This document shows, piece after piece, positions 15,595 to 47,944 of a stretch of DNA of 64,000 bases (position 1 is the stretch's first letter; each line of letters begins with the position of its first letter). Under the pieces are notes generated by a model, which was given only the letters and a program-made list of their open reading frames with translations, was not told where the DNA came from and did no database searches. The DNA is from an uncultured Chloroflexia bacterium (lineage in GTDB: Bacteria > Chloroflexota > Limnocylindria > Limnocylindrales > CSP1-4). The position numbers and the translations under genes are program-made. The stretch is taken from contig CAWHHU010000003.1 of assembly GCA_963829295.1 (NCBI GenBank), forward strand, positions 360,157 through 424,156, given 5' to 3'.

Positions 15595-18093
15595 TCAGGC
15601 TCGGAGCCTGCCACCCAGCACGTGGATCGCGCGAACGACCGCGGCCAGGGCATCGTCCACCTCGACCTCGGTGAGGGTGCGGTCGGGAGCGGCGAACGAC
15701 AACCGGATCGCGAGGCTCTTCTCGTTCTCCCCGAGGGGCGTGCCGCGGTACACGTCGAACAGCCGCGCGCCGCGCAGCAGGGGACCCGCCGCGCCGGCGA
15801 CGGCCTCGGTCACCGCCGCTGCCGTGGCCAATTCGGGAACGACGACCGCCAGATCGCGGCCAAGCTCCGGGAAGCGGCCGATCTCGGGGGCTCGCTCGGC
15901 TTCCAGCCGCCCGGCCGACAGCCCCCGGAGCGCGACCTCGGCGACGATCACCCGCTCCTGTGTCCGCAGGTCCCAGGCATCCACCAGGTCCGGATGGATC
16001 TCGCCGACCAGGGCATCGAGCCGGTCGGGGATGGATGCGCGCGCCGTTCGCCCTGGGTGGAGCCGGGGTTCCCCGGCCTCGGCAACGTAGACCGGGTGTC
16101 CGAGGCCCAGCCGATGTGCGAGCAGCTCGATCAGGCCCTTGGCGTCGTCGAGGTCATACACGCGCCGGCGGCGGTTCCAGGCCGGTGGCTCCGCCGACCC
16201 GGTGAGCGCGAACCCGAGCCGCCACCACTCACGCGGCTGATCGCCCGTTCGCGCGTACCCCTTGCCGACCTCGAACACCGCGATGTCATCGGTCCCGTGC
16301 CGCAGGTTCACGCCGACCACGTCGAGCAGGCTTCCGAGCAGGTTGCGACGGAGGAGCGAATGATCTCGCGACAGCGGGTTCGAGACGGCGATCGGGTCGC
16401 CCCCGGCGATCGGGTCTCCGGCAACCGAGGTCACCTCGTGGTGCAGGGCGAAGGTCTCGATGTGGCGCGGGGACACGAGCGCGGTCGTCACGACCTCGGT
16501 CAGACCCGCCCCGGCGAGGGTGTCCCGCACGAGCTCGCGCACCTCGAGCGGCGACGGGCGGAACGCAGGCATCTCCGTGTCCGGCCGCACCGACGGGACA
16601 AGCTCGTAGCCGTGGACCCTGGCCACCTCCTCGGCCACGTCCGCCTCGATCGCGAGGTCGCGCCGCCAGCTGGGCACCATCGCGGTCACGGCCTCACCGG
16701 CGCCGGCAGCCACGCTCAGGGGCTGCGGATCGAGCGACACGACGACGGCATCCCCGGCTGGCTCGGTATCGACGCCCACCCGCGCCAGCAGCGCGCGCTG
16801 CTCGTCCGCGGACAGCGCCGTTCCCAGCAACCGGTTGACCCGGGCGGGCCGGAAGGCGACCCGCCGCCGTTCGGGCTCGATGGGAGCTGTGTCCACGCGT
16901 CCGGCCGCGATCTCACCTCCCGCCCATGCCCTGACCAGCTCGGCGGTCCGGTCCGCGCCGAGCCGGGCCAATCGCGTCTCCTGGCCCTTCTCGAACCGGG
17001 TGCTGGCCTCGGAGCGCAGGCCCAGTCGCTGCGCGGTGCGGCGGATGCTCACGGGGTCGAAGATGGCGGATTCGATCGCAACCTCAGTCGTTCCCTCGGA
17101 GATCTCGGAATCTGCGCCGCCCATGACACCGGCCAGGCCGAGGGGACCCTCCGGATCGGCGATCAGCAACGTCTCGTCGGTCAGCTCACGATGGACGTGG
17201 TCCAGCGTCTCGAGCCGCTCCCCACTGACGGCACGCCGGACGATGATCCGCGCCCGTCCATCGGCATCGGGGTGCACCCGCCCGCCGTCGAAGGTGTGGA
17301 TCGGCTTGCCCAGCTCGAGCATCACGTAGTTGGACGCGTCCACGACGTTCGAGACGGGCCGCTGCCCCGCCGCAAGCAGGCGCATCTGCACCTGGTCGGG
17401 CGACGGACCGATCGTCACCCCGCTCACCCACCGGCCCACGAACCTTGCACACAGGTCCGGATCGCGCACCTCGACCGCAAGCCGGTCGGCGGTCGATGGC
17501 CCGCTCCCCTCCTCCACCTCGATCACCGGCATCCGCGACTGCCGACGTGTCGCCGCCGCCACCTCGCGTGCCAGGCCAACGATCGAGAGCGCGTCGCCGC
17601 GGTTGGGCTTGACGTCCACGTCGAGCACCACGTCGCCGTACAGGTCGGCCAGCGGCACGCCCAGCGGCGTGTCGCCGGGCAGGATCAGGATGCCGTCCGC
17701 ATCGCCGGTCAGCTGGAGCTCGTCGCCCGAGCACAGCATCCCGTTGGAGACGACGCCCATCTTCTCTGCGCGCTCGATGCGGCGGTTGCCGGGCAGCACC
17801 GCCCCGGGCACGGCGACCGGCACCCGCTGCCCGGGCGCGATGTTGGTGGCCCCGCACACGATCGAGAGTGGCGGCTGACCGTCGCCGAAGGTGACCGTGG
17901 TGAGCGAGAGCCGGTCGGCGCGGGGATGCTTCTCGACCGTCAGCAGCTCGCCGGTGACGACGCTCTGCCAGTCAGCGCCCCAGCGTTCGATGCTGCTGAC
18001 CTCCATGCCCAGCAGGGTCAGCCGCTCGGCCAGCTCGTCGGGCGTCAGATCGACGTCCACGAACTCTCGGAGCCAGGAGAGCGGGACTCTCAT
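15595..18093 (-). CDS. pheT: Phenylalanyl-tRNA synthetase beta subunit
   Basis: Full-length PheT: tRNA-binding N-terminal domain (MRVPLSWLREFVDVDL...), B3/4, B5, catalytic-like and FDX-ACB domains. ATG at 18093 overlaps the pheS stop (ATGA). Confidence 0.95.
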   Translation of the reverse strand: MRVPLSWLREFVDVDLTPDELAERLTLLGMEVSSIERWGADWQSVVTGELLTVEKHPRADRLSLTTVTFGDGQPPLSIVCGATNIAPGQRVPVAVPGAVLPGNRRIERAEKMGVVSNGMLCSGDELQLTGDADGILILPGDTPLGVPLADLYGDVVLDVDVKPNRGDALSIVGLAREVAAATRRQSRMPVIEVEEGSGPSTADRLAVEVRDPDLCARFVGRWVSGVTIGPSPDQVQMRLLAAGQRPVSNVVDASNYVMLELGKPIHTFDGGRVHPDADGRARIIVRRAVSGERLETLDHVHRELTDETLLIADPEGPLGLAGVMGGADSEISEGTTEVAIESAIFDPVSIRRTAQRLGLRSEASTRFEKGQETRLARLGADRTAELVRAWAGGEIAAGRVDTAPIEPERRRVAFRPARVNRLLGTALSADEQRALLARVGVDTEPAGDAVVVSLDPQPLSVAAGAGEAVTAMVPSWRRDLAIEADVAEEVARVHGYELVPSVRPDTEMPAFRPSPLEVRELVRDTLAGAGLTEVVTTALVSPRHIETFALHHEVTSVAGDPIAGGDPIAVSNPLSRDHSLLRRNLLGSLLDVVGVNLRHGTDDIAVFEVGKGYARTGDQPREWWRLGFALTGSAEPPAWNRRRRVYDLDDAKGLIELLAHRLGLGHPVYVAEAGEPRLHPGRTARASIPDRLDALVGEIHPDLVDAWDLRTQERVIVAEVALRGLSAGRLEAERAPEIGRFPELGRDLAVVVPELATAAAVTEAVAGAAGPLLRGARLFDVYRGTPLGENEKSLAIRLSFAAPDRTLTEVEVDDALAAVVRAIHVLGGRLRA

Positions 18094-19130
18094 CGGAAGG
18101 CTCCGAGGAAGCGCAGGTCGTCCTCCATGTACAGGCGCAGGTCGGCGACCCGGTGACGCAGGTTCGCGATCCGCTCCACGCCCATCCCGAACGCGAACCC
18201 CTGGTAGCGCTCGGGGTCGATGCCGCCGTAGCGGAGGACGACCGGATGGACCATCCCCGCACCCAGGATCGTCATCCAGCCCGTCCGCGAGCAGGCCGGG
18301 CACTTCGCACCGTCGCAGATCACGCACAGGATGTCGAACGCGACCGATGGCTCCGTGAACGGGTAGTAGCCGGGGCGGAAGCGGGTAGGCCGATCGATGC
18401 CGAACAGGGCGTGGGCGAACTGGTCGAGCAGGCCCTTGAGGTCGGCCAGCGACGTTCCCTCGTCGACCATCAGCCCCTCGACCTGGAAGAACTCCGAGCC
18501 GTGGCTGGCGTCGACCGCCTCGTACCGGAAGCAGCGGCCCGGCAGCAGCGCCCGGATGGGCGGTCGCTCCTGGTGCATCACACGGATCTGGCCGGGGCTC
18601 GTGTGCGTTCGCAGCAGCCGGCCGTCGACGTCGAGGTAGAGCGTGTCCCACAGGTCCCGGGCCGGGTGATCGGGCGGGATGTTGAGCATCTGGAAGTTGG
18701 TGAGATCGTCCTCGATCTCGGGACCCTCGTACACCACGAAGCCGAACTGGGCGAACACGTCGGCGATCTCGCGCGCCGTCTCCACGATCGGGTGCAGGCT
18801 GCCGCGGCGGATCGGACGGCCCGGGGTGGTGACGTCCACCGCCTCGGCCTCCAGACGGGCCGTCAGCTCGGCGCCACCCAGGCGCCCGCGCGCCCCGGCC
18901 AGTGCCGCCTCGATCGCGGCCTGGACCTGGTTGCCGATCGCGCCCACCCTGGGCCGGTCCTCGGGCGGCAGCGCGCCGATCCCACGCAGGACACCCTTCA
19001 GCTCCCCTTTCTTGCCCAGCACCTCGACCTGGAGCTGGTCGAGCGCGCCCGTATCCGAAGCCGCGGCCGCGGATTCGAGGGCACGGTCCCGGAGCGCGTC
19101 GAGGTCGCGAGTGAGCTGGGCGAGATCCAT
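18090..19130 (-). CDS. pheS: Phenylalanyl-tRNA synthetase alpha subunit
   Basis: Class II aaRS motifs 1-3 (...FRPGYYPFTEPS...GAGMVHP...GFAFGMGVERIA). 346 aa. Confidence 0.95.
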   Translation of the reverse strand: MDLAQLTRDLDALRDRALESAAAASDTGALDQLQVEVLGKKGELKGVLRGIGALPPEDRPRVGAIGNQVQAAIEAALAGARGRLGGAELTARLEAEAVDVTTPGRPIRRGSLHPIVETAREIADVFAQFGFVVYEGPEIEDDLTNFQMLNIPPDHPARDLWDTLYLDVDGRLLRTHTSPGQIRVMHQERPPIRALLPGRCFRYEAVDASHGSEFFQVEGLMVDEGTSLADLKGLLDQFAHALFGIDRPTRFRPGYYPFTEPSVAFDILCVICDGAKCPACSRTGWMTILGAGMVHPVVLRYGGIDPERYQGFAFGMGVERIANLRHRVADLRLYMEDDLRFLGAFR

Positions 19131-19263
19131 CAGGCCGGCGGTCCCTGAATCACGAACCTCCGCCCATCATCGATGCCCTTCGGAGGACCGAGGCGACGCT
19201 CAGGCGAGCCATCGGTCCGAGGATTCCGAAGCGACGATCCGCGGGCCATCGGTCCGAGGATTG

Positions 19264-19614
19264 CTAGGCGCTGCGGGCGACCTCGGCGATGCGGCCGAAG
19301 GTCGTCGCGTCACGAACGGCGATGTCGGCCAGGATCTTCCGATCGAGGTCCACCCTGGCGCGCTTCAGGCCGGCGATCAGCCTGCCGTACGTGATGCCGT
19401 TGAGCCGGGCCGCCGCGTTGATCCGGATGATCCACAGCTCGCGCATGTCGCGCTTGCGCTGCTTCCGGTCCCGGGTCGCGTACGCCAGCGCATGCAGCTG
19501 GGCCTCGCGAGCGGGCTTGATGAGCTTGCGGCGGGTGCCCTTCCGGCCCTCGGCCGCGTTGAGCAGCCGCTTGTGCCGCTTGTGGGCCGTGACACCCCGC
19601 TTGACGCGTGCCAT
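19264..19614 (-). CDS. rplT: 50S ribosomal protein L20
   Basis: MARVKRGVTAHKRHKRLL...GRLIAGL is a near-universal L20 sequence. Confidence 0.95.
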   Translation of the reverse strand: MARVKRGVTAHKRHKRLLNAAEGRKGTRRKLIKPAREAQLHALAYATRDRKQRKRDMRELWIIRINAAARLNGITYGRLIAGLKRARVDLDRKILADIAVRDATTFGRIAEVARSA

Positions 19615-19623
19615 CGATCGCTC

Positions 19624-19821
19624 CTAGAGATACGGCAGCAGCCGGCGAAGCTGCTCCTGGTGCTCGGGACCCACGATGGCCTTGCCCGCGTAGCGGCGGG
19701 TCCGGCGCGACGACTTGATCTCGAGGTGGTGGCCCCGCCAGGACTTCACCCGCACAAACTTGCCACTGCCGGTGACGCCGACGCGCTTCTGCGTCCCCTT
19801 GTGGGTCTTCATCTTCGGCAC
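19624..19821 (-). CDS. rpmI: 50S ribosomal protein L35
   Basis: (V)PKMKTHKGTQKRVGVTGSGKFVRVKSWRGHHLEIKSSRRTRRY is the L35 signature. GTG start at 19821 is preceded by GAGG. 65 aa. The longer track ORF 19624..20172 is a read-through artefact. Confidence 0.9.
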   Translation of the reverse strand: MPKMKTHKGTQKRVGVTGSGKFVRVKSWRGHHLEIKSSRRTRRYAGKAIVGPEHQEQLRRLLPYL

Positions 19822-19828
19822 GCTGGCC

Positions 19829-20638
19829 TCACTCTCCTGCTGGCGACGCCTCGGCCGCCTGGGCCGGTGGCGCTGGCTGCTGAACCGCGGCCGTTGCGGT
19901 CTGGTCGGTGGCTGCTTCGGTCTGGTCGGTGGCTGCTTCGGTCTGAACCGCGGCCGTTGCGGTCTGGTCGGTGGCTGCTTCGGTCTGAACCGCGGCCGTT
20001 GCGGTCTGGTCGGTGGCTGCTTCGGTCTGAACCGCGGCCGTTGCGGTCTGGTCGGTGGCTGCTTCGGTCTGAACCGCGGCCGTTGCGGTCTGGTCGGTGG
20101 CTGCTTCTGGCTCCTCTGGCCTGGGTCCCGGGCTGCGATGCTCGTGGACTCTCGGCTTGTGCACGGAGGCAAGCGTCATGAACATCGACTTGCCCTCGAG
20201 CACCGGTGTGCGGTCGACGGTGCCGTGGTCCTTCACGGCGTCGCCGAACCTCGCGAGGAGGTTCCGCCCGAGCTCCGGATGGGTCAGCTCCCGGCCCCGG
20301 AACCGGACGGTCACCTTGATCCGATCGCCATCCTCGAGGAACTCGATCGCCCGGTGGACCTTGGTCTCGAAGTCACCCGTGCCGATCTTCGGCGAGAGGC
20401 GGACCTCCTTGAACTCAACGGCCCGCTGCTTTCGCTTGGCCTCTTTCTCGCGCTTCGTCAGCTCGTACTTGTACTGCCCGAAATCGAGAAAGCGGACGAC
20501 CGGAGGAGCCGCGGTGGGCGCCACCTCCACGAGGTCGAGCCCCCGGTCCTGCGCCATCGTCATGGCCTGCGGCGTCGGCATGACGCCGAGCTGCGAGCCG
20601 TCCTCGTCGACGACCCGGACCTGAGGGACTCGGATCAT
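19829..20638 (-). CDS. infC: Translation initiation factor IF-3 with ~110-aa repetitive Ala/Thr/Gln-rich C-terminal extension
   Basis: The core is MIRVPQVRVVDEDGSQLGVM...DLVEVAP.A.PPVVRFLDFGQYKYE...EVRLSPKIGTGDFETKV...FLEDGDRIKVTVRFRGRE. It is followed by (EAATDQT/ATAAVQT)n heptad repeats. Confidence 0.9.
   Translation of the reverse strand: MIRVPQVRVVDEDGSQLGVMPTPQAMTMAQDRGLDLVEVAPTAAPPVVRFLDFGQYKYELTKREKEAKRKQRAVEFKEVRLSPKIGTGDFETKVHRAIEFLEDGDRIKVTVRFRGRELTHPELGRNLLARFGDAVKDHGTVDRTPVLEGKSMFMTLASVHKPRVHEHRSPGPRPEEPEAATDQTATAAVQTEAATDQTATAAVQTEAATDQTATAAVQTEAATDQTATAAVQTEAATDQTEAATDQTATAAVQQPAPPAQAAEASPAGE
19876..20108. repeat. About 5.5 copies of a 42-bp (2 x 21 bp) in-frame tandem repeat inside the infC 3' region
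   Basis: Units ggtctggtcggtggctgcttc / ggtctgaaccgcggccgttgc alternate. On the minus strand they encode EAATDQT/ATAAVQT. Confidence 0.85.
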
Positions 20639-20979
20639 CTGATTGACACGCAGGTCTCGGCTGATGACGTGGTCCCTTTGTTAGAACGGTGTTGGGTTTG
20701 CGGCGCGTGCGGGGAAGCACCCGGCGCGGTCGCCGCGGGAGGATAGCACACGCGTTCTCGGGGTCGCAATGAAGCCGACCCCCGTTGAGACGGCGTGCAG
20801 AGCGCTGGCAGGGGCGACTCGCCCGGGCCCGTGGAACCGTATCCTCGGATCCCCTCGTCCTTGCCAGCGTGAGGCAGCCCGGGCGCCGCCGACGTTGCCC
20901 GGCACGAGGAGCCGGCCGCGCTGGCGGCACGTTCTCCGCGTACCGGCTGCGCCTCCATCGTCCCGCCGTTGGCTGATGT

Positions 20980-22848
20980 TCAGCTCAGGCGCCGCTCGCG
21001 CGCCTCATCAGCCAGCCGGGTGGCGAGGTCGGTCCAGCCGACCCCCTGCTCCTGCGAGCCGTCGCGCCGGCGGACGGAGACCGTCCTGGCCTCGACCTCG
21101 CGGTCGCCGAGGATGAGCATGTACGGCACCTTCTGGCCCTGCGCGAGCCGGATCTTGTTCTGCATCCGGTTATCCGAGTCGTCCACCTCGACGAACCGCA
21201 GCCCGGCGGCGCGCAGCGCGTCCGCCAGCTCGCGAGCCGCATCGACGTGGCGATCGGCGATCGGGATCACCACCGCCTGAACCGGCGCGCACCACAGCGG
21301 GAACGCGCCCGCGAAGTGCTCGGTCAGCACCCCGATGAACCGTTCCAGCGAGCCGTACACGGCGCGGTGGATCGCGACCGGCCGCTGCTGCGTGCCGGCC
21401 TCGTCGATGTAGGTCAGGTCGAACCGCTCGGGCAGCATCACCCGGTCCACCTGGATCGTCGCGGTCTGCCACTCACGGCCCAGCGCGTCGGTGATCTGGA
21501 TGTCGATCTTGGGCGCGTAGAAGGCGCCGTCCTTCTCCTTCACGCGATACTGGAGCCCCGAGCGGTCGAGCTCGGTGCGCATGATCGCCTCGGTCTCCGC
21601 CCACACGGCCGGGTCGCCCAGGGCCTTGTCGGGCCGGGTGCCGAAGGTGAGCGTCGGCGTCAGCCCGAACCACGAGTATGCCTCGCGGATCTCGCCCATC
21701 AGCGCCTCGATCTCGGCCGCGATCTGGTCCGGACGCACGAAGATGTGCGCGTCATCGGTCACGAAGTGGCGGACGCGGGTCAGGCCCGACAGCACCCCCG
21801 ACAGCTCGTTGCGGTGGAGGACCCCGTATTCGGACAGGCGCAGCGGCAGGTCGCGGTACGAGCGCAGCCGAGATCGGTACAGGAATGACGACTCGGGGCA
21901 GTTCATCGGCTTGAGGCTGAACCACTGATCCTCGACGTCGACCAGGTACATGTTGTCGCGGTAGAGGTCCCAGTGCCCGGAGCGCTCCCACAGCTTCTGG
22001 TGGACGAGGGGCGGCGTGTAAATTTCGTCGTACCCGCGCCGGTCCTGGAGCTCGCGCATCGCGTCGCGCAGCGTCCGGTACAGCCGCCAGCCCTTGGGAT
22101 GCCAGAAGGCGGCACCCGGTGAGACGTCATGGAAGCTGAACAGGTCGAGCTGGACGCCCAGCTTGCGGTGGTCGCGCTTCCGGGCCTCCTCCCGCTGCCA
22201 CAGGTAGTGATCGAGCGCCTGCTGCGTCTCCCAGACCGTCCCATAGATCCGCTGCAGCGACTGGCGCGACTGATCGCCTCGCCAGTACGCGGCCGAGACC
22301 GCAAGCAGCTTGAAGGGCCCGATCCTGCCGGTGGACTCGACGTGCGGCCCACGGCACAGGTCGCGGAACGGACCGTGTTCGAAGAAGCTGACCGGTGGCA
22401 TCGGCTCACCCGTCTCGGCCGCCCTGCGCGCCAGGTCGTCGAGGATCTCGACCTTGAACGGTTGACCCGCGCGCTCTTCGATCGCACGCCCCTCGTCGAA
22501 CGGGACCTCACGGCGCACGAAGGCGTGATCGGCCGCGATGCTGCTCCGCATCCGCGCCTCGATCGCCTCGAGGTCGTCCGGGGTCAGTGGTCGCGGGAGG
22601 TCGAAGTCGTAGTAGAAGCCGTTCGCGATCGCCGGCCCAATGCCCAGCCTGGCATCCGGGAACAGGTCGAGCACGGCCTCTGCCATCACATGAGCAGCGG
22701 AGTGGCGCATGGCGTCGATGGGCGCCTGCGCGCCGGCGTCGAGCAGCTCGTCGGCCGACCCTCGCGATGATGCCTCGAAGGCCAGCTCCTCGTCGTCATC
22801 GGGCCGCCCGTCCTGGACCTGTGCCTGATCGTCCGTCATGTCATCCAC
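20980..22848 (-). CDS. thrS: Threonyl-tRNA synthetase lacking the N-terminal TGS domain
   Basis: Second additional domain HxxxH (RHSAAHVMAEAV). Class II motifs. Anticodon-binding domain. The RHSxAH motif begins ~45 aa from the start, versus ~70 in E. coli ThrRS. The N-terminus is acidic (MDDMTDDQAQVQDGRPDDDEE). Confidence 0.95.
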   Translation of the reverse strand: MDDMTDDQAQVQDGRPDDDEELAFEASSRGSADELLDAGAQAPIDAMRHSAAHVMAEAVLDLFPDARLGIGPAIANGFYYDFDLPRPLTPDDLEAIEARMRSSIAADHAFVRREVPFDEGRAIEERAGQPFKVEILDDLARRAAETGEPMPPVSFFEHGPFRDLCRGPHVESTGRIGPFKLLAVSAAYWRGDQSRQSLQRIYGTVWETQQALDHYLWQREEARKRDHRKLGVQLDLFSFHDVSPGAAFWHPKGWRLYRTLRDAMRELQDRRGYDEIYTPPLVHQKLWERSGHWDLYRDNMYLVDVEDQWFSLKPMNCPESSFLYRSRLRSYRDLPLRLSEYGVLHRNELSGVLSGLTRVRHFVTDDAHIFVRPDQIAAEIEALMGEIREAYSWFGLTPTLTFGTRPDKALGDPAVWAETEAIMRTELDRSGLQYRVKEKDGAFYAPKIDIQITDALGREWQTATIQVDRVMLPERFDLTYIDEAGTQQRPVAIHRAVYGSLERFIGVLTEHFAGAFPLWCAPVQAVVIPIADRHVDAARELADALRAAGLRFVEVDDSDNRMQNKIRLAQGQKVPYMLILGDREVEARTVSVRRRDGSQEQGVGWTDLATRLADEARERRLS

Positions 22849-23142: not shown

Positions 23143-23219
23143 TGGTGGGCGATACTGGACTCGAACCAGTGACCTCATGCATGTCAAGCATGCGCTCTAA
23201 CCAGCTGAGCTAATCGCCC
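23143..23219 (-). tRNA. tRNA-Val (anticodon GAC), CCA encoded
   Basis: The minus strand reads GGGCGATTAGCTCAGCTGGTTAGAGCGCATGCTTGACATGCATGAGGTCACTGGTTCGAGTCCAGTATCGCCCACCA. This gives a cloverleaf with a 7-bp acceptor stem, anticodon stem CATGC/GCATG and loop TTGACAT. Confidence 0.9.
23179..23219. repeat. attL core: 41-nt direct repeat, equal to tRNA-Val nt 1-41
   Basis: Identical to 47769..47815 apart from a 6-nt CTCTAA duplication in the distal copy. Confidence 0.8.
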
Positions 23220-35732: not shown

Positions 35733-36058
35733 CCGGGCGGGAGGCACCGGGGAGAGCCGATCCCGATCAGCGACCCGTGAACGGGCGAGATCCGGGCGGC
35801 GCAGCTGTTCGTGGCGGTGATCGGCGCGTCTTCGTACACGTACGCCGAGGCGACGCCGTCCCAGGAGCTGCCCCACTGGCCTGGGCGCCTTCAAGAAGCG
35901 TGCACGCCGTGGCCAGGGCTGGCCGCTCGCGCGCCGAAGCAGAGCCGAACATCGAAGAGGCTGCGCTCCCCGCCGGCATCATCCCGGGAGGGCTTGAGAA
36001 TGGTCCAGCGAGGAACAGGTGCCGAGCATCCCCTTGCGGCCCAGCGCTGCGCTGCCTG

Positions 36059-36697
36059 TCAGCCAGGTGGGACCTTGTCTCGACCCCCAGTCGAGGGGAC
36101 CCCGGTAACCAAGAAGACATCAACTATCGAGAAGCCGATACCGTCAACTTGGTACGCGAAGCAGCCTGGACCCCCTACCAATGTAAGAGACGGCCATGTT
36201 CGTTCGACGCCAGGGGTCCCTGGAGGGAAGAGGAGTTCGCCGGCTGCCGGCTGGCCGCTCAAGATGAAGGTCACGGAGCCTGGTATGTCGAGTTGAGCTC
36301 CTCGGATCTGAATTGGCCCGGCATACTGAGCCGCAGCAAACCACAGAACCTTGATCTGATAGAGCGAACCAGAGCGCGCTCCAAGGGGTTGGCTTCCCTC
36401 GTTGCCGAACCCAACGGGATACACCGGGCCGACGCCCAGCGCAGGTCCGACGCTCGGCGAGACATCGCTCCCGGTGGAGACCGGGCAGTCATCAAGAGCC
36501 CGATGCAGAGTTAGCAGCCGATTGGGGATCGACGTCAGGTTCGTGTTGCCCGCGCTAGACCCGAGAATTGCACTGGCACCTCCGGACGCGACTAACGTGG
36601 CAAGGATCCCGAGGATGACGATGGCGGTCGCGACAAGAATGCCGACGCGCTGCGTGGAAAGGATCGTATGCAGGCGCGGCGGGCTCGGGCTGCGCAT
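36059..36697 (-). CDS. Membrane-anchored extracytoplasmic hypothetical protein
   Basis: N-terminal signal-anchor ([24 protein letters not shown]) then a ~170-aa domain. Low-GC region. No recognisable family. Confidence 0.4.
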
Positions 36698-36720
36698 GGG
36701 ATCAGACGACGACGGGACCA

Positions 36721-37284
36721 TTAAATCGATCGGGCAATGACGAGCCAAGCCAGGAAGAGCATGGCGAGATCGAGCATCCGAAACAACCTCCACCGCCCAG
36801 TGAAGGCCATTGCTACGCGCGCTGGATCCGTGCGGGTCGACAGGAGGCCAACAAGGAGGGGGACCCATCGTCCTACTCCATATGCGACAGCGGAGAACCC
36901 TGCTAGGTCACCACGCCCAGTCAGCCACCCGATGACGAGAGTCGCCAGCCAGGCGCCATAGGGTGCTTTGGTAGCCAACCCCGTTCCAAGAAAGATCCCA
37001 TATCTCGTGGCGCCGAGCAAAGGGCGCTCACGCATCCATCCTCGTGGCACCTGCCAGCCAGACTGGGGTACCCGGTGCATGAGGCTTGCCAAGAACAAGA
37101 TGCTGACGGCGACAAGCGCGGCGACCGGCCACCATGCAGATCGAGGCGTTACTATACCAATCGCACCGACAGCGACAAATACCGATCCCGCACCGACCAA
37201 TAGCCCACCCAAGTGCAAGATACTTGCTGCTACAACTCTAGGTAGTGATGCCACCTCGACCAGGGGCCTGATCGTCATGATCAT
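36721..37284 (-). CDS. Polytopic membrane protein (4-6 TM, Cys-free), hypothetical
   Basis: Hydrophobic helices throughout. Downstream of the Cys-rich gene, low GC. Confidence 0.45.
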   Translation of the reverse strand: MIMTIRPLVEVASLPRVVAASILHLGGLLVGAGSVFVAVGAIGIVTPRSAWWPVAALVAVSILFLASLMHRVPQSGWQVPRGWMRERPLLGATRYGIFLGTGLATKAPYGAWLATLVIGWLTGRGDLAGFSAVAYGVGRWVPLLVGLLSTRTDPARVAMAFTGRWRLFRMLDLAMLFLAWLVIARSI

Positions 37285-37370
37285 GTTGGCCCCTCACGGC
37301 AACGAGCCGGTCGACACCCCCGCAAATAGCGCAAGCATCACCGCCGTCTCGCCAACGTCCATCGGCGCCC

Positions 37371-37877
37371 TCAGCAGTTTGGATTAACCCCGGTCAGCTT
37401 CCGATCCCTTGGCTGGACAAATACCGGTGAGTCCGGCACGCCCCTTGGGAGGGCATGATTGTCACGATACGCGCAGCCACACGCGTATGTATTGCACGCG
37501 CCTGCTGGGCACCAACAATCACAGCAGTACCAAAGAACGCCATAACAGACAGCAGACCAACAGTTGCCTGGACTCCAGTATTCCGTGTCCGGATAGCACC
37601 CGCCCTGACACGAAGATCCGCTCGATGAACACTTGCTCGACGGGCAATTCACTCCTCCCGGAGGGCTACAGCAGGCAATCGCCTCAACGTCCAGAACGCC
37701 CAAGGCACCTTCGGCCAGTGACGCCGCCGTCGCCGCGAATACGAACTGGAGACCCCTCCGCAAGAGCTGTCTACGATTGCGCCGACGCGCGAACTCCTCC
37801 GCAGCAAGGCCGAATGATCCGGGCTGTGCTTCCCGATCGAACTCCAGTCTGGGCGAGTTCGGATCATCTCCTGTCAT
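37371..37877 (-). CDS. Tat-signal, cysteine-rich (16 Cys, 4 Trp) small secreted protein with local MauA-like (methylamine dehydrogenase light chain) motifs
   Basis: ATG at 37877 has a strong SD (GAGGAGGG) and lies 1 nt after the MauD-like stop. The ~60-aa leader carries RRRNRRQLLRRGLQFVFAATAASLA (twin-arginine). The mature region is IACCSPPGGVNCPSSKCSSSGSSCQGGCYPDTEYWSPGNCWSAVCYGVLWYCCDCWCPAGACNTYACGCAYRDNH. Compare MauA ICDCSGGSLTNCPPGT...ASW57VASCY...YRDCCG. Confidence 0.6.
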   Translation of the reverse strand: MTGDDPNSPRLEFDREAQPGSFGLAAEEFARRRNRRQLLRRGLQFVFAATAASLAEGALGVLDVEAIACCSPPGGVNCPSSKCSSSGSSCQGGCYPDTEYWSPGNCWSAVCYGVLWYCCDCWCPAGACNTYACGCAYRDNHALPRGVPDSPVFVQPRDRKLTGVNPNC

Positions 37878-37878
37878 A

Positions 37879-38412
37879 TCAGCCCTCCTCAGAGCGGGGG
37901 TGTTCCAGGTTCTCAATCCGGAATAGGTCAATCGCGTGGTTTACGACGCCCTTGGCCCTAACCACCCCATCTCTGACATGTATCGCAAAGGGGCTCACTC
38001 GAACCCGAAGCCTCGAGGCCAGATCAGAATCCGTACCGGCAGCCTCCAATCCAGATGCAGCTGCCCAGTAGGGAAGAGCGCCGCCGTCGGTCTGTACGAG
38101 CAGGTGAAGACCAAGGTGGTCAATCTCTTGGCGCTCGAAAGTGCCAAGCTCTTCGATCAAGCTCTCGCAGATCCCGCAGCCGTTCAGACCGAACAACAAG
38201 AGGTGGTTGCCGCTAGAAACATCGATGCTGCCGTCATGTACACGGACTTGATCAAGGCTCGTGCCCACTCGTGGACCATCGCGCGTCGTTGCGCCCCGCG
38301 TGCGCAGATACAGATGACCGAGCTCTCGGTACAGCGACAGCAGTAGCACAAGAATAGCGACGACCACGAGCCAAAGCAGGACGTAGCTGGCGACAAAGAA
38401 ACCTCCGCTCAT
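37879..38412 (-). CDS. MauD-like membrane-anchored thioredoxin-fold thiol-disulfide oxidoreductase (CGIC active site)
   Basis: N-terminal TM anchor, then LLLFGLNGCGICESL (CXXC) and the thioredoxin fold. Located between the MauE-like gene and the Cys-rich gene. Confidence 0.6.
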   Translation of the reverse strand: MSGGFFVASYVLLWLVVVAILVLLLSLYRELGHLYLRTRGATTRDGPRVGTSLDQVRVHDGSIDVSSGNHLLLFGLNGCGICESLIEELGTFERQEIDHLGLHLLVQTDGGALPYWAAASGLEAAGTDSDLASRLRVRVSPFAIHVRDGVVRAKGVVNHAIDLFRIENLEHPRSEEG

Positions 38413-38414
38413 GG

Positions 38415-38906
38415 TCAGGCTACTTCGTAGAAGTGACGCACAGCGCCAAGAATCAGGGCACCAAGCGGAATGATCGCGCCAGCAATGCGAATGGTAATCG
38501 CATCAGCCATGGCTTCTTCTGGAAGCGACTGCCGGCCGAAGCTCAGCCAGATGAGTAGCAACCCCAGAGAGAGGAAGACAACGGCGTGCACGTACGAGTA
38601 CGTGGCAGCTTCGTCCAATTGTCCGTAGCACCCGCAGCGCAGCCCGGGATGGCGGCGCGCCATGAACGCTTGTACGACAGCAAATCCGATGAAGAGCGCC
38701 GCCGCCGGCACCGCAAACGGCTGTGGGCCGAGCAACAGCAGGCCGGCGAAGACCTCAGCGAGGACGAGAGTCCCAATCAGCGTTGCGCGACGTCGGTCCG
38801 TTGGCCACGCGACGTCCGCCGTCCCACGCATCAACTTGCCTGCAGCGGCCCCGAGAAGGATCCAACCCCCGCCAAATGCGGCGACCCAGTAGAGGCTCGA
38901 ATCCAT
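38415..38906 (-). CDS. MauE/DoxX-family membrane protein
   Basis: A 4-TM, ~160-aa protein with RCGCYG in TM3, as in methylamine-utilisation MauE-like proteins. Its stop lies 2 nt before the MauD-like start. Confidence 0.55.
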   Translation of the reverse strand: MDSSLYWVAAFGGGWILLGAAAGKLMRGTADVAWPTDRRRATLIGTLVLAEVFAGLLLLGPQPFAVPAAALFIGFAVVQAFMARRHPGLRCGCYGQLDEAATYSYVHAVVFLSLGLLLIWLSFGRQSLPEEAMADAITIRIAGAIIPLGALILGAVRHFYEVA

Positions 38907-39352
38907 AGACGCCTCACCCCCACTTCCTTCGCGAGCATTATCGGCGTCGGTGTCAAGGGTCCGAGGTAATCAAGTGCAAGGACGATCGGCCAATCGACCG
39001 TGATGTTCGGCGCGAGATCCTCAGGCCCAGTAGGTCACGATGGCCGCGGGGAGGCGGATCTGAAAGGCTCACAGCCTCACACTTGATAGCGGGGTCCGCG
39101 AGGCACGCCACGCCAGCGAGCTCGAGCGGCGCGGATCGCCTGAGTTGACCGGAGATTGGCGGCCCGCTTCAGCAACTCCCCGTCGGGAAGGTCGGGATGC
39201 AGGCGGCGGGCCTCGACGATGAACCGATCACCAGCTGCCGCCCTCGCGGCCGCGGTCGCGGCCGTTCGATCGCGCACCCGCGCCCCAGCGTTCGTGGGCC
39301 GCGAGCCGTGCGATCGTGGCTCGACAGAGGGAGTGGCGCGGCTTCGATCCGC

Positions 39353-40120
39353 TCACCGGAGCGCCTCGTCACGCTCCTCGTCGCCGCCCTCACCGAGCAG
39401 GTGTAGCCACCCCTCGGTGGCACCTGGCGTCGGACAATGCCGCGGCATCGGATGGGCAAGGAGGTCGCCGAGCGCCGACCGGTGGCCGCCGGGGAACAGC
39501 GGCCCGATGCTGGTCCCGAGCCCTGCCCTCCGGAGCTCGCCGAGCCCGAGCGCCCAGGCCCGACCGGCGAGCTCAGGGTGACCGCCGTCCCGCCGGACGA
39601 CCCGGGCGAGGAAGCCGACCCGCTCTCGACCCGGAGCCACGAACAGGACATGCGAGCCCTGCCGGCGAGCGCGGTGGCGTAGCGGGCGAGCTTGTCGCGG
39701 CTGTCGGGTCGGTGCTCGGTGCCCTCGTCGATCTCGAGGCACAGGACGCCCGACGCCGTCGACTCCCGCAGGACGACGATGCTGGCGGGGTAGACGCCGG
39801 CGAGGAGTTGGGTCGCGTTGCCCTCCGGGTGCTAGAGCTGGACGATCGGTTCGGCGGTGGGCTCCGAGCGGACGAGGGCGCAGATGCTCTCGACGACGTT
39901 GAGCGAGTGGCCCAGTTGCGTGCCGGCGCGGAAATGGGTGAGCGACTTGTGGCCGAGACTTGTAGCCGAGACGGCGGCGACCGCGGGCCGAGACGCGGAA
40001 GGCGAGCGACGCACAACCGCGCGTCTGTGGTGGGAGGACGGCGCGATCGACGTAGCCGAGGCGGTGGAGGACCGCGAGACGCTGCTGGGCGGTCTGCCGG
40101 CGGCGGTTGACGAGGGTCAC
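39353..40120 (-). pseudogene. Replication-relaxation family pseudogene (paralogue of 27743..28684; frameshifts and internal stop)
   Basis: The N-terminus QRLAVLHRLGYVDRAVL is the Replic_Relax HTH. Homology to copy A continues in a second frame (LNVVESICALV..PASIVVLRES...EIDEGTEH...KLARYATALAGR) through a TAG at 39832-39834. Confidence 0.5.
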
Positions 40121-40276
40121 AAGCTGAGCGGTCGTGGCAACGTCGCAGCGGCAGAGAATCCGCGGGCGGGCCCGGTCACGGGTGCGGAGGCACCCCGGAT
40201 CGATGACTAGCCGGCGATCACATGCGGGAGCGGATCATGACGAGGCCCAGATCTCGCACGCGTTCGAGGACATGCT

Positions 40277-41228
40277 CAACCAGGGGCTTCATCGACCCTC
40301 GATTTCGAGGGCGGCCCAGTCCCATCTCCTCTCCGGCGGCACGGCCATGAACCCCGGAGCCACCGATCGATCCACGCCGCCGTCGCGAGGGGACGGAGCC
40401 TTCCGATCGACCGGCCGGCCGCCGGGCCGCACGGTCACGGCGCCGGCCTCGAGGGTGACGACCCGCCACGGCGTCTGCGACCGGCAGGGCGACGGCCCCG
40501 ACCCTGATTGACACGGCGGACGGCTTGCGCTGGCAGCCATGGTTCCGCCGAGACGTCGAGCGGGCGGTCGACCGCCGAGGTCAGCCGCCGGCTTCGACCC
40601 TAGCCACTTCGGCCGTCGCAGGGAACCCGGATTCCGTGCAAGATTCTGTGTATTGTCAGCTCCGCTACGTCCCGATTGACACCCACGATGACGTGTGCAA
40701 CGCTCCCATCGTGCTCAAGACGAAGCGGCCGCCTGGGCGGGCGCGGCCACCGATCCCGACTTTGTCGGCGAGGCCGCCGAGCTCGAGGCGGCATATGGCG
40801 ACGCCGAGCCGGCCACGTGGCCGAGACCGTAGGGCTGCCAGCGCTCCGCTGGGCCGTCGTGATCGTCGGACTCGATCCGGTGGAGGGTCACGAGCAGGCC
40901 GGTGAGCGGCGGGCGCTGGTCGTGAGCTATGAGGCGTTCCACCGCTCGGGGCTGCTGACCGTGTGTCCGATCAGCGCCGCCCGCGAGAAGCCGCGCTATC
41001 CGGGCGAGGTCGCGATCCCGGCCGGCGAAGGTGGCCAGACGAAGTCCGGGCTCATCCTGTGCGCCCAGGTCCGGACGATCTCGGTCCGTCGGATCCGGGC
41101 GACCGGCATCCTGCCCGGTGGCGGCGTCGCCCACCTCACCGACGCCCGGATCCGCTCGGCGGTGCGAGCGGCCCTCCGACACCACCTCGGGCTCGATATC
41201 CCAGCCCAGTCGGACGGGGCGGCGAGCG
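40277..41228. repeat. Copy B of the duplicated TA segment, with an internal 136-bp deletion
   Basis: Identical to 29409..30496 minus the 136 bp between two GACGAAGCGG direct repeats (A: 29851-29860 and 29987-29996). Confidence 0.85.
40711..40832 (+). pseudogene. RHH antitoxin remnant (RHH domain deleted, downstream frame shifted)
   Basis: VLKTKR is followed directly by the post-deletion sequence. The 136-nt deletion is not a multiple of 3. Confidence 0.5.
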
Positions 41229-41353
41229 CGATAGGGGTTGACCTGGCGCAGCGCGAAGACGGGACCGTCACGAAGCCCGAGCGACCCGAGGGTGAAGCCA
41301 TGACGCCGTCGCCCGGCGTGTCAGACGACCGGCAGCCAACAGAAAGGAGGTGA
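40817..41353 (+). CDS. mazF: MazF/PemK-family toxin, copy 2 (intact core, divergent C-terminus)
   Basis: Identical to copy A through ...DIPAQSDGAAS, then a different 40-aa tail. Confidence 0.7.
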   Translation: MAETVGLPALRWAVVIVGLDPVEGHEQAGERRALVVSYEAFHRSGLLTVCPISAAREKPRYPGEVAIPAGEGGQTKSGLILCAQVRTISVRRIRATGILPGGGVAHLTDARIRSAVRAALRHHLGLDIPAQSDGAASAIGVDLAQREDGTVTKPERPEGEAMTPSPGVSDDRQPTERR

Positions 41354-41811
41354 TCGTCAGGGGGTGAAGAGCGCCCAGGTGTCAGGCGCTGCGCGGCCTC
41401 CGACGCCGAGTGATCGAAAACTCCAGACTGACTGATCACTTTCGCCGGGATACGCATCATCGTCCAGTCCCGCTGAGTCGCTGCCGTGGCTGGCACACGG
41501 CGGAGTAGGTGTCAGCGGGATCTCCCGTCCGTTGTCCGTTTGGGAAGGAGATTTTCCCACGCGATTTGACGAGGGCTCGGCTCCACGGCGCAGTCATCGG
41601 TGTGGGCGGCGGCGCTCCTCGAGCCGTCGGCCGACGACGCGACCCGTCCCCGATCTCGTGGCGCCCATCGCGGTTCGCGACCTCGTCAACCCTGCCGCGT
41701 TTCGGGGCGGCCGTCCGGACCGAGCTCGAGGCGACGCGCGGGTGCTCTGGTGGAACGTCTTGCCCGTGCCCGTTACCTCCGGCTCGTTCTGACGCCTCGG
41801 TCGCTGATGGC

Positions 41812-42369
41812 CTACTCGACAACCAGCTCCCGGATCTCCATCACGGCTCCCTTGACCGCGAAGTCCACGTCCCACACGAGGACTGCTTCGACCGGCTCGA
41901 CCCCGGCGACGCGAGGACGATCCCATGCGACATCAGTGAACGGCGGAGCGCCCGCGACGAGCGAGCGGAACTCGACACGTGTCCCCGCAACTCGATAGAC
42001 GTCGACATCGCCGTTCACGATCCTGAATGACGTGCTGGAGTGAACACCCTCCGCGAACGCGAGGTGGCCGATGACGAGCTCATGGTGGCCGACGCCGCCG
42101 ACCGGGACCGACAGCGCGTCGATCCGTAGCGGCGTGCCCTTGGCCCGGTTCTCCGGATCGAGCGTCGGATACGGCGTGCCGCACGGTCCATCCTCAGTCT
42201 CGCAAGGGGCGTCGCCCGTATCCGGCCACGCCAGGAAGGGTTGGTTCCACTCATAGGTGGCGTGGCCCGCGACTGCGTTGAGTGGTGACGGAGTGGGCTG
42301 GGTCGCGCATCCAGCAACGACCAAGGCTAGGACGATGACCTCCGCGAGGCCACGAACCGGTCGACTCAT
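41812..42369 (-). CDS. Lipoprotein, hypothetical
   Basis: Signal peptide with lipobox LVVAGC (MSRPVRGLAEVIVLALVVAGCATQ). Confidence 0.5.
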   Translation of the reverse strand: MSRPVRGLAEVIVLALVVAGCATQPTPSPLNAVAGHATYEWNQPFLAWPDTGDAPCETEDGPCGTPYPTLDPENRAKGTPLRIDALSVPVGGVGHHELVIGHLAFAEGVHSSTSFRIVNGDVDVYRVAGTRVEFRSLVAGAPPFTDVAWDRPRVAGVEPVEAVLVWDVDFAVKGAVMEIRELVVE

Positions 42370-42380
42370 TGGACCCCTAT

Positions 42381-43280
42381 TCAGTGCAGCGAAGTCCAGG
42401 CTTCCACGCTGTCGCCCTGTGACACTACGGTCTTGATCTGACAGTGATACCAGGAAGGGGCCGGATCATGTCGGCATCCACCCTGATTATTGTAATCGTA
42501 CGGAGCTGGTTCATTTCCCATACCATTTCGGACGAACCACGTCGAGGAATTCTCTCGCCGATACTGCAGCCACCGCAGGCTAATGTTGCCCGTGTTGGTG
42601 TGGCCTATCGCATCCATCGTGTTCTTCGTCTCATTCACCCACCAAGCTAGCTTCGCATAGTGGCTCCACGTTCGCGATATGTAGGTGCAGACGTACGACT
42701 CACCGTTGCTCTTATTTCGAATACAGATCTGCCACTCTGGACGTGGGTAGGGCTCCGAAGTATAGACGCCCTGAATGCGGAATCTGTAGACGCAGGTCGT
42801 GCACACGGCATTGCCGCTGTGATACCAGGTTGCAACTGCAAGTTGGCCGGATTGGTAGCTTCCAGTGCCGTGGTCAAATGGGGTGTAGACCATTATGGTG
42901 CTGTCCATCGACGAGTCTTCGTAGAAGCCAACCTGGACGAGTCCGCCGTTGGTCAAGTTCTCTTGGAGATTCGCCGGGAGGACTGCCGAAAAGCCGGAGT
43001 GACTCGAAGACGCGCCGTAACAGGTCGCGCGGTCCCTGGCGTAGCCTTCACCAATGACGCCATTGAACTCATCGGTGTCAATATTTGTCTCTTTGTGGAC
43101 ATACATGTGGTACTGGCTGGCGGCCTGCTGGCCTAGGTCGCAGTCGTACGTGTAGTGGGAGCTCGCCTGCGCGGCCCGAGGCATGAACGCCAAAGCCAAG
43201 ATCAGGGAAAGGGCGACCGACCATGCAGGCTTCCCTGGTCGCCTTCGTGGAGAGCTCACAATGCCGCGGTCCGCGTGCAT
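42381..43280 (-). CDS. Secreted Tyr/Trp-rich hypothetical protein (low GC)
   Basis: Signal peptide ...AWSVALSLILALAFMPRAAQA. ~280-aa mature protein with many W/Y/N/T residues and 6 Cys. The start at M16 (43280) versus 43325 is uncertain. Confidence 0.5.
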   Translation of the reverse strand: MHADRGIVSSPRRRPGKPAWSVALSLILALAFMPRAAQASSHYTYDCDLGQQAASQYHMYVHKETNIDTDEFNGVIGEGYARDRATCYGASSSHSGFSAVLPANLQENLTNGGLVQVGFYEDSSMDSTIMVYTPFDHGTGSYQSGQLAVATWYHSGNAVCTTCVYRFRIQGVYTSEPYPRPEWQICIRNKSNGESYVCTYISRTWSHYAKLAWWVNETKNTMDAIGHTNTGNISLRWLQYRRENSSTWFVRNGMGNEPAPYDYNNQGGCRHDPAPSWYHCQIKTVVSQGDSVEAWTSLH

Positions 43281-43422
43281 GGCCGGTGTCTTCGGCGTCA
43301 CCGTGCTCACAGCATGTACATCCATGCCGACAAGTCAAGTCATCTACGGTGAAGGGTTCAGTTTCCCGATTCCGGCTCCTCTGTACCGGTAGCATGCGAT
43401 CCCCCTGCAGACGAGGAGATCC

Positions 43423-43700
43423 ATGCTGTTCTCGCTCGTGTACTTCGCGCCCTGCCGTCTCCTCGGAGCCGGAGGCCGCCAACAGGTCGAGAGGGACATC
43501 GAGCTCCTCGTGCTCCGCCACCAGGTGAAGGTGCTCCAGCGGCGGGTCAAGCGTCCCAGGCTCAACCGTCTCGACCGGGTCCTGCTCGCGGCCGCGAGCA
43601 CCGGGTTGCCGAGAGGCAGCTGAATGTCGTTCATGGTGCGGCCGGAGACCCTGCTGCGGTGGCACCGGGAGCTCGTCCGGAGGAAGTGGACGTAACCAGG
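43423..43700 (+). pseudogene. N-terminal fragment (~90 aa) of an integrase-core-type transposase (IS remnant)
   Basis: DIELLVLRHQVKVLQRRVKRPRLNRLDRVLLAAAS...(frame change)...MVRPETLLRWHRELVRRKWT matches the conserved N-terminal region of actinobacterial DDE transposases. The catalytic domain is absent. Confidence 0.45.
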
Positions 43701-44426
43701 CTTGCGGGCCAGGATCTCGAGATAGTGGTCGAGGAGGAGGGTCTGGCTGCCCCGGACCGTGCTCCGCTCGTGACGGGACAACGACCGATCCGGCATCGGT
43801 GACCTCGATCGCGGTACCCCCGATGCGCGCGACGAGCGTCCGCCCCACGTACCGCGCCGGGACCGAGTAGAAGCACTGGCGGACGCACACCCGTGATCGG
43901 GCGTCACCTTGACCGGGGTCATCCGCGCGAAGTCAAAGGGTTCCGCCGGCAGCGGGTGCAGGGCCGCCCCGGTCGGCCTCGCCCATGGCGCCGACCGTGG
44001 CCCGACGGCTGCCGATGTGGCGCGGCTGCAGAGGGTGTTGATCCGCCGGATCTTGACAACGGCCCTTCTTCATAGTGGTGGCGGGCCGCTGGCGCGGCCA
44101 CCCGAGACCGATGAAAGTAGGCGCGCGCCCCGGAGCCGGGCCATCAGCACCTCGCCTGATCCGGGCGGCGCCAGCGAACAGTGCTCAGCCTTCGAGCGAT
44201 GTCGGGGTTCCAACTGGCTAGGCGATCCCCTGCCACTGGACCCTTGAATTCGAGCACCCCACGCCGACCGTGCTGCTAGGCGTCCACGTAGGGGGGATCA
44301 GCCGATGAGCGAGTGATGCGGCCGCGGTGGAATGGCTTGGCCGCTCCCTGTTACGTCTCCGGCGGCCCCGTAACCAGCGCTAGCCGTGCCACCCCTAGGA
44401 TGAGACTGCCGTAAGGGGGTTCACAC

Positions 44427-46104: not shown

Positions 46105-46222
46105 CCAGCGAAGTCTGCGGGCCGGCCACCACATCGAGTGGAGCCGGCCCGCCATCGAGACTGCTGGCGGCATCACGATCATTACCCGAGAAGTCACGCC
46201 TCGTGGAAAGGGAAATGCGCAG

Positions 46223-47398: not shown

Positions 47399-47768
47399 TC
47401 CTACTGTCGCCTCTTGAGTGCCGTCCTGCGGAAATCCCGTACGGGAATATGCTCGTGTGACTCATCCGCTGACCGAGGAGTGGATCGTCATTCCGACCTG
47501 TGGGCTGCACTGTTCGCCGAACCGACCATCGTGGCCGCCCCCTCCCACCGGGAGGGCCACCAGCGGCGTCCAAGCGAACAGACGCTCGAGCGCCTCGCGG
47601 CCGCCATGTCTTTGTCGATGTTGCTGGTCACAGTCCAGGCCGGTCCGCTGCGAGGCCGCCTCTGCTCCGCTGTTGCCCGCTAGGGCAGTCTAGAGCACTT
47701 CACTGGGCACGAACGGAAGCCCCTCCCATGCACGGGAGGGGCCGATTCCATGGCGCTTGCGACCGGCC

Positions 47769-47815
47769 GCATGTCAAGCATGCGCTCTAACTCTAACCAG
47801 CTGAGCTAATCGCCC
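47769..47815. repeat. attR core: 5' 41 nt of tRNA-Val with a 6-nt CTCTAA internal duplication (tRNA fragment, non-functional)
   Basis: GCATGTCAAGCATGCGCTCTAAC[TCTAAC]CAGCTGAGCTAATCGCCC matches 23179..23219. There is no D/T-arm completion and no 3' half. Confidence 0.8.
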
Positions 47816-47944
47816 TTCGGGCGCGGAGAATAGCACCAACCCCCGGGCGCCCCGACGCTGACCTGCGGGCTTCGCGCGGCTCCGGCAGCGCCGATGGAGC
47901 TCGCCACCTCCGGGGCCGCGGACACGCCTCGGAAGGGCGCTGCC

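Follow-up and report, generated by a model that had tools for sequence, protein, structure and literature searches.

A predicted disordered, acidic C-terminal tail of variable length, in one genome built from 42-bp tandem repeats, on initiation factor IF3 of Limnocylindrales-type Chloroflexota

The infC gene encoding translation initiation factor 3 (IF3) was analysed in a 64,000-nt stretch of the genome of an uncultured Chloroflexia bacterium (contig CAWHHU010000003.1; the whole stretch is called the window below). The gene codes for a normal two-domain IF3 followed by about 111 residues beyond the IF3_C domain (after ...MTLAS), part of which is specified by an array of in-frame 42-bp tandem repeats. 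The protein matched the NCBIfam infC equivalog model TIGR00168 with 198 bits (cut-off 60) over residues 4-167, and the surrounding genes, identified by open reading frames (ORFs) and Pfam domains, follow the classical order thrS-infC-rpmI-rplT-pheS-pheT on the minus strand of the window. A preliminary description of the window had proposed an in-frame extension of ~110 aa made of such repeats, and both the Tandem Repeats Finder program and an exact-pattern search agreed with it. Comparison with related genomes indicates that the tail is a trait of the lineage, changing in length, and not an oddity of one genome. It is probably a translated, disordered, acidic low-complexity C-terminal appendage on a normal IF3, which would temper the binding of the factor to the 30S subunit or to RNA; our confidence is high for the anatomy of the tail and low for its function.

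Tandem Repeats Finder reported a 42-bp period at positions 19918-20107, with 4.5 copies, 100% matches and a score of 380, and a 21-bp sub-period of 70%. Perfect 42-mers were found at 20107-20066, 20065-20024, 20023-19982 and 19981-19940, with zero matches expected by chance for this pattern (100 shuffles). Together with the half unit and the terminal unit that follow them (Table 1), the whole array is 231 bp long (19877-20107) and encodes 11 heptads, six of the type EAATDQT and five of the type ATAAVQ(T/Q), so the initial count of ~5.5 copies was correct. The two 21-bp halves of the unit are identical to each other at 14 of 21 positions. The 7-mer CAGACCG, common to both types of unit junction, is a plausible slippage microhomology, also for the odd half-unit step. 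Near-perfect head-to-tail units with a length that is a multiple of 3 bp are a feature that the array shares with coding loci resembling variable-number tandem repeats (VNTRs); copy-number polymorphism was seen for other arrays at the same infC position in relatives. No other large tandem repeat occurs in the window, and across all six frames of the 64 kb the infC tail alone is a low-complexity stretch rich in Ala, Pro, Glu and Thr. A second, small tandem repeat of 24 bp (2.0 copies, 95% matches) is located at 48493-48540.

The array of the window is missing from its three closest loci, whose infC core DNA matches that of the window at 94-95% identity. In an alignment with the related loci L001, L003, L004 and L083, the 3' flank DQTATAAV..QQP.PPAQAAE was common to all and the array was absent from the sister species. 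Because the flank is shared with sisters that have no array, the last unit is the ancestral one and the amplification postdates the split of the lineages. The perfect identity of the units implies a recent expansion, as suggested at first.

The relatives comprised 80 loci from species-representative genomes of Limnocylindrales-type Chloroflexota, giving 81 loci with the window. A tail follows ...MTLAS in every one of these 80 species-level genomes; it measures 41-177 aa from there, and 31 to 167 aa when counted past the HEHR tetrapeptide. A protein search retrieved 120 close homologues of 192 to 322 aa, some of them named Candidatus Limnocylindrales, nearly all of which extend past ...SVHKPRVHEHR into an Ala/Pro/Glu/Thr-rich stretch. 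A stop codon directly after the IF3 core, which had been named beforehand as the observation that would speak against a translated extension, was present in none of the 80 relatives. The view of the appendage as unusual had to be given up, since every relative has a tail and since extensions are common among other IF3s, including those of Myxococcus and Euglena, as described below.

In 73 of the 81 loci (the window counted) the ORF ends with Gly-Glu or Gly-Asp before the same TGA stop codon, placed within the rpmI Shine-Dalgarno tract, and for 72 of these 73 the spacing between this stop and the start position of L35 (MPKMK...) is exactly 7 nt. The distance from the core to the stop varies ~5-fold among species and is always a multiple of three, which argues that the reading frame is under selection, as unselected insertions and deletions would yield other distances. 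On this comparative evidence we infer that the tail is translated. The eight exceptions (L003, L006, L008, L013, L035, L039, L051 and L077) are frameshifts or early stops. They are confined to long-read MFD metagenome-assembled genomes (MAGs), with 8 cases among 47 loci versus 0 among the 33 other loci (Fisher p = 0.018). Two of them, L006 and L039, read as IF3-L35 fusions, and the shift in L003 consists of a 7-nt insertion within an 18-bp repeat with the downstream sequence intact. We read all eight as consensus errors. Database IF3s with Arg-rich ends (for example P0006, P0010, P0022 and P0085) are probably also consensus errors in this GC-rich repeat region, and in public protein sets derived from long-read MAGs, IF3 tails rich in Arg and fusions of IF3 with L35 should in general be regarded as probable frameshift artefacts.

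The sequence of the tail turns over rapidly. In 24 close species pairs, which were of equal tail length, chosen for alignability and phylogenetically non-independent, the pooled ratio of non-synonymous to synonymous substitution rates (dN/dS) was 0.11 in the core; within the tail it was 0.89 in the middle part and 0.37 over the last 16 codons. The tails could not be aligned between species except at their two ends. Their composition is far more stable, with Ala at 29%, Pro at 19%, Glu at 11.5% and Thr at 10%. Arg makes up 2.1% of tail residues, where the base composition of the tail DNA would predict 18.3% (an ~8-fold depletion), Gly is depleted 3-fold, Phe, Tyr, Trp and Cys each have a frequency of 0.000 after rounding, and Glu is enriched 3-fold despite complete sequence turnover. 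In the window, the tail contains neither Lys nor Arg beyond ...SPGPRPEEPE, which would leave a single tryptic peptide of about 95 residues. The other two frames of the tail DNA would encode 25-37% Arg. The net charge was negative in 68 of 73 tails; in the window protein it is -15 for the tail and +6 for the core. The pattern indicates a sequence that evolves nearly neutrally while its frame and composition are kept. An AlphaFold model built with a 40-sequence alignment folded both IF3 domains and left residues 160-269 as coil, with a mean predicted local distance difference test (pLDDT) score of 40-57 in 10-residue blocks. The tail is accordingly predicted to be intrinsically disordered, in line with the flexible appendage assumed initially. 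No Pfam match was found for the tail of the window protein. A protein search with the tail alone retrieved nothing, the query's own protein included, perhaps because HMMER filters queries of such biased composition, and this outcome is no sign of absence.

The same region of other genomes carries its own, unrelated in-frame repeats. The unit EAPEVA is present three times in L004, EEAAEV-type units occur in L001, a 14-aa unit is repeated four times in L072, QPEAAK is present three times in L071, and further arrays were found in L073 and L074. The sister species with these independent repeat families are 94-97% identical in infC core DNA. Changes by single units were also detected. The metagenome contig L083 has one 18-bp EEAAEV unit more than L082, the IF3s being otherwise identical. 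The proteins P0009 (241 aa) and P0007 (260 aa) are identical save for one extra 19-aa unit in the latter, and the copies of this unit number one in P0009, two in P0007 and three in the related P0047 (279 aa). The suggestion that the repeats are a hotspot of slipped-strand variation is thus supported for the tail region, as demonstrated on the arrays of relatives.

The start of the gene also differs from the one in the ORF list. The ORF finder placed infC from 20638 to 19829 on the minus strand, giving a protein of 269 aa. The position of the conserved start is occupied by ATC in 71 and by ATA in 9 of the 81 loci, behind an AAGGGA Shine-Dalgarno motif. Conservation also covers the peptide I(S/A)RDLR(V/I)NQ ahead of the internal ATG; L028 has ACG instead of this ATG. 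Because a conserved start and a conserved peptide precede the ATG, the IF3 of the ORF list and of databases begins nine codons late. By this comparison, infC starts at 20665 with a non-canonical ATC instead of with the ATG of 20638, and the protein has 278 aa. The AUU start codon of E. coli infC is the basis of IF3 autoregulation. The window locus has a start of this class. The annotated ATG start is wrong in this lineage, with AUC or AUA as the conserved start.

The distal end of the tail coincides with the initiation region of rpmI. In the window, 7 nt separate the TGA of infC from the GTG of rpmI, and this GTG, with the MPKMK that it begins, is conserved across loci. The C-terminal PAGE codons, CCA GCA GGA GAG, were invariant at all twelve positions in a subset of 33 species, GGA GAG was essentially invariant in the 73 loci, and the junction sequence CCA GCA GGA GAG TGA GG is nucleotide-invariant. 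These codons are rare in the IF3 core of the same genomes, where CCA accounts for 3% of Pro, GCA for 8% of Ala and GGA for 7% of Gly codons; invariant four-fold codons of the core have a mean third-position entropy of 0.85 bits. Because the invariant rare codons overlap the Shine-Dalgarno tract of rpmI, their conservation points to a constraint at the nucleotide level exerted by the rpmI ribosome-binding site. PAGE as a protein motif was rejected on the same grounds. The case illustrates that a C-terminal protein "motif" can be the shadow of the Shine-Dalgarno sequence of the next gene.

Synonymous conservation over the last ~16 infC codons was noted in the 33-locus subset and reaches further upstream than the Shine-Dalgarno tract needs. 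The additional conserved sites could represent a standby site or an element of an L20 operator. With 63 distinct junction sequences as input, RNAalifold predicted no consensus helix near the rpmI Shine-Dalgarno tract, and single-sequence folds disagreed with each other. Rfam at the gathering score detected only a tRNA and no L20 leader in the whole window, and a permissive Rfam scan (E up to 5) of 18900-21200 returned only chance-level microRNA and long non-coding RNA matches, again with no L20 leader. With neither an Rfam match nor a structure resembling an L20 site, the junction does not group with the L20-responsive rpmI operators or leaders. Long-range pairing of the kind seen in the E. 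coli pseudoknot was also considered; unrestricted duplex folding of the infC body with the rpmI leader yielded long, inconsistent, scattered duplexes, the ~70% GC content of this DNA making such folding uninformative.

A model that accommodates these observations can be outlined as follows. The DNA between the C-terminal domain of IF3 and the rpmI ribosome-binding site would turn over rapidly through the gain and loss of short in-frame repeats. In the window, a 42-bp unit with CAGACCG at both flanks would have been amplified recently to ~5.5 copies, either through slippage during replication or through unequal recombination. Selection would keep the frame, the composition and a minimum of ~30 residues, but not the amino acid sequence. 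Since infC ends at a TGA inside the rpmI Shine-Dalgarno sequence, with 7 nt left to the GTG, the synthesis of L35 and L20 could be coupled to that of IF3 by termination and reinitiation. By analogy with the chloroplast IF3 of Euglena, the most likely role of the protein segment would be that of a flexible negative appendage which moderates how strongly the basic IF3 body binds the 30S subunit or RNA.

Several observations weigh against this reading. The support for translation of the tail is comparative. A near-neutral dN/dS of ~0.9 and a 5-fold variation in length fit a functionless translated spacer equally well, and the way in which the species pairs were chosen qualifies the ratio itself. 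The tails of the more distant relatives L078-L081 are roughly neutral in charge and the IF3 tails of other phyla are often basic, which means that acidity is no universal requirement. The array was met with in a single sample, as a 30-mer from the repeat had no match in metagenome contigs, the protein cluster of the window IF3 had one member from one contig, and the exact protein was absent from the gene-position index. The absence of a conserved hairpin at the Shine-Dalgarno tract would leave the coupling to reinitiation alone.

The main rival explanation, possible but on balance not likely, is that the tail is a translated spacer without protein function, kept open for the rpmI site or for RNA, with a composition that avoids a toxic (basic, sticky or hydrophobic) product. 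It would be the counterpart of the infC-rpmI spacer or operator region in other bacteria; the operator of E. coli rpmI covers the 3' part of infC together with the intergenic sequence (PMC1888825). The dN/dS of the tail middle, the lack of alignability across species over a length range of 31 to 167 aa, and the restriction of strong conservation to the nucleotides overlapping the rpmI Shine-Dalgarno tract are what such a spacer would lead one to expect. However, none of the 73 lineages falls below 31 residues after HEHR, although a deletion would also put the stop next to rpmI. The depletion of Arg and the enrichment of Glu outlast full sequence turnover, and neither an Rfam L20 leader nor a consensus RNA structure was found. 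An artefact of assembly or consensus calling, in which the array, its copy number or the reading of the tail was made by the assembler or a true stop or frameshift was obscured, is considerably less probable. Perfect repeats are classic sites of collapse and expansion, the window protein occurs once on one contig, and eight related long-read MAG loci are frameshifted in the same region, L003 looking like a garbled 18-bp repeat. Nevertheless, the array is perfectly periodic, stays in frame and rejoins the ancestral sequence and the conserved stop, whereas consensus errors would produce imperfect or out-of-frame units. At 231 bp, it is also shorter than long reads generally are, which would count if the source assembly rests on such reads, and short-read assemblies of relatives vary in repeats likewise.

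The least probable account treats the tail as a tunable module with the repeat number as a dial, longer acidic tails weakening the IF3-30S interaction or shifting stringency and length variants being selected by niche. The series of one, two and three units, the one-unit difference between near-identical sequences, the independent repeat families at the same position in closely related sister species and the ~100-fold modulation of binding by the extensions of the Euglena chloroplast factor (PMC2241858) could be cited in its favour. Against it, no sign of a correlation of tail length with any other property was seen and no specific support was obtained, units that are multiples of 3 bp do not allow on/off switching, and near-neutral evolution needs no adaptive account. 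A combined, two-layer device, in which RNA ties L35 and L20 to IF3 synthesis, the acidic tail tunes 30S affinity and slippage serves as a dial of initiation stringency, is unlikely, though less so than the dial by itself. The disordered acidic appendage thus remains the explanation we favour.

Table 1. Positions of infC, its tail and neighbouring features in the window
Feature	Position	Strand	Basis or remark
infC (IF3) coding sequence, including stop codon	19829..20665	minus	278 aa from ATC start
IF3 N-terminal domain, Pfam PF05198 (IF3_N)	20438..20635	minus	E 4.9e-27; residues 2-67 of the 269-aa ORF
IF3 C-terminal domain, Pfam PF00707 (IF3_C)	20168..20419	minus	E 1.4e-31; residues 74-157; model positions 1-84 of 86
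Basic proximal segment VHKPRVHEHR	20135..20164	minus	directly 3' of the C-domain; near-invariant in 120 homologues and most of 81 loci
Variable acidic low-complexity tail, 101 aa, net charge -15	19832..20134	minus	position homologous in all relatives
Four perfect 42-bp units, each EAATDQT-ATAAVQT	19940..20107	minus	exact-pattern search, zero mismatches
Extra 21-bp half unit, EAATDQT	19919..19939	minus	seen in sequence, between perfect units and terminal unit
Terminal unit, 39/42 identical, EAATDQT-ATAAVQQ	19877..19918	minus	exact-pattern search; second half is the ancestral copy
Last 16 infC codons (QPAPPAQAAEASPAGE)	19832..19879	minus	3' part doubles as rpmI translation-initiation region
Purine tract AGGAGAGUGAGG, rpmI Shine-Dalgarno region	19827..19838	minus	holds infC stop TGA (19829-19831); nucleotide-invariant across 73 loci
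rpmI (L35), GTG start, MPKMKTHKG...	19624..19821	minus	Pfam PF01632, E 3.8e-16
rplT (L20)	19264..19614	minus	Pfam PF00453, E 2.1e-38
thrS	20980-22848	minus	ORF and Pfam
500-aa antisense ORF, spurious	18679..20181	plus	antisense to pheS, rplT, rpmI and infC tail

The gene order around infC in L001 is identical to that of the window. The 500-aa ORF on the opposite strand, called spurious already in the preliminary description, was rejected as a gene, as it had no Pfam match (E up to 1) and overlaps four conserved minus-strand genes. Stops are rare in the alternative frames of the high-GC tail DNA. The listed version of pheT (15595-18651, minus strand) encodes 1018 aa from a GTG and overlaps pheS by ~560 nt; the gene more probably starts near MRVPLSWLREF than at the listed GTG, and the gene call in L001 has 834 aa. 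In the rplT-pheS spacer a 37-bp tandem duplication (19188-19262, 2.0 copies, 86% matches) was found, absent from the relatives examined. A hairpin followed by GGGTTCGTGATTCAGG lies just upstream of pheS and is kept in most relatives examined; the folding of the spacer was not significant (z = -1.4). A tRNA-Val gene with the anticodon GAC is located upstream of thrS (23143-23219, minus strand) and is the sole Rfam match at the gathering score in the 64 kb. The GC content is ~0.64-0.67 at about 36000-48000 versus about 0.72 over most of the window, and this stretch might be a differently composed gene block or an island.

Extensions of IF3 were also surveyed beyond this order. A core-only search of 1.84 billion cluster representatives, a sample biased towards relatives of the query, gave among the matches listed 106 near-full-length IF3s at 43-58% identity, of which 59 had at least 30, 31 at least 60 and 12 at least 100 extra residues past the core. 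Most of these extensions are low-complexity and acidic or basic, and a few look like frameshift artefacts. One long-tailed representative from elsewhere belongs to an Actinomycetota bacterium. A literature search found no paper on such IF3 tails in Chloroflexota. The results indicate that IF3, an essential and highly conserved factor of translation, can accommodate a disordered appendage that is built from repeats and evolves fast, and that it does so across a whole order of abundant uncultured soil and freshwater Chloroflexota. With tails from about 30 to 170 residues long, these bacteria also offer a natural series for probing the C-terminal extensions of bacterial IF3, which have so far been addressed in Myxococcus and in organelles. 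The by-products of the analysis, namely the AUC/AUA start, the Shine-Dalgarno shadow and the frameshift artefacts, are arguably more useful than the tail itself.

Among known systems, the tail of the Myxococcus xanthus IF3 (Dsg) is reportedly linked to development, and we know of no developmental cycle in these Chloroflexota. The C-terminal extension of Dsg is described as longer than 60 aa and dispensable for viability (PMC2241858). Like Dsg, the window protein combines a normal two-domain IF3 core with a long C-terminal appendage of more than 60 residues past the C-domain (~111 in the window). Unlike Dsg, it comes from another phylum, its tail was formed from fresh tandem repeats, and the length of the tail varies 5-fold among species. 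Shared ancestry with the Dsg tail seems unlikely, as the tails cannot be aligned even within their own order.

In the IF3 of Euglena gracilis chloroplasts (IF3chl), a C-terminal extension of ~60 aa acts jointly with an N-terminal extension to reduce 30S binding ~100-fold and to inhibit the activity of the factor in vitro (PMC2241858). The window protein resembles IF3chl in having residues past the IF3 core, and IF3chl was taken as the model for the acidic tail. Mitochondrial IF3 (IF3mt, known from mammals and, as Aim23p, from yeast) carries extensions at both ends, which modulate interactions with the ribosome (PMC2241858; PMC6321546). For the yeast factor, a proposed role of the extensions is to adapt the IF3 core to the mitoribosome (PMC6321546). 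Unlike IF3chl and IF3mt, the window IF3 has only 9 residues before its N-domain, so its extension is C-terminal only. The charge contrast between tail and core is suggestive of an autoinhibition like that attributed to organellar extensions. A lineage-specific extension next to a conserved IF3 core is shared with IF3mt and Aim23p. The sequence of the window tail is under almost no constraint (dN/dS 0.89), and this speaks against a specific docking site.

The array itself resembles VNTR-like coding repeats in low-complexity linkers of bacterial proteins in its perfect in-frame units, junction microhomology and copy-number differences among close relatives. It differs from the repeats of surface and contingency genes in that its host is an essential single-copy translation factor, and units that are multiples of 3 bp give no phase variation. 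As in the L20-binding operator of E. coli rpmI-rplT, the sequence just upstream of rpmI is under constraint at the RNA level and overlaps infC (PMC1888825). In contrast to that operator, the interval in the window is wholly translated, the gap is 7 nt, and no conserved structure or Rfam match accompanies it. IF3s with C-terminal low-complexity extensions are already known, and the one described here adds a further case in a lineage of Chloroflexota.

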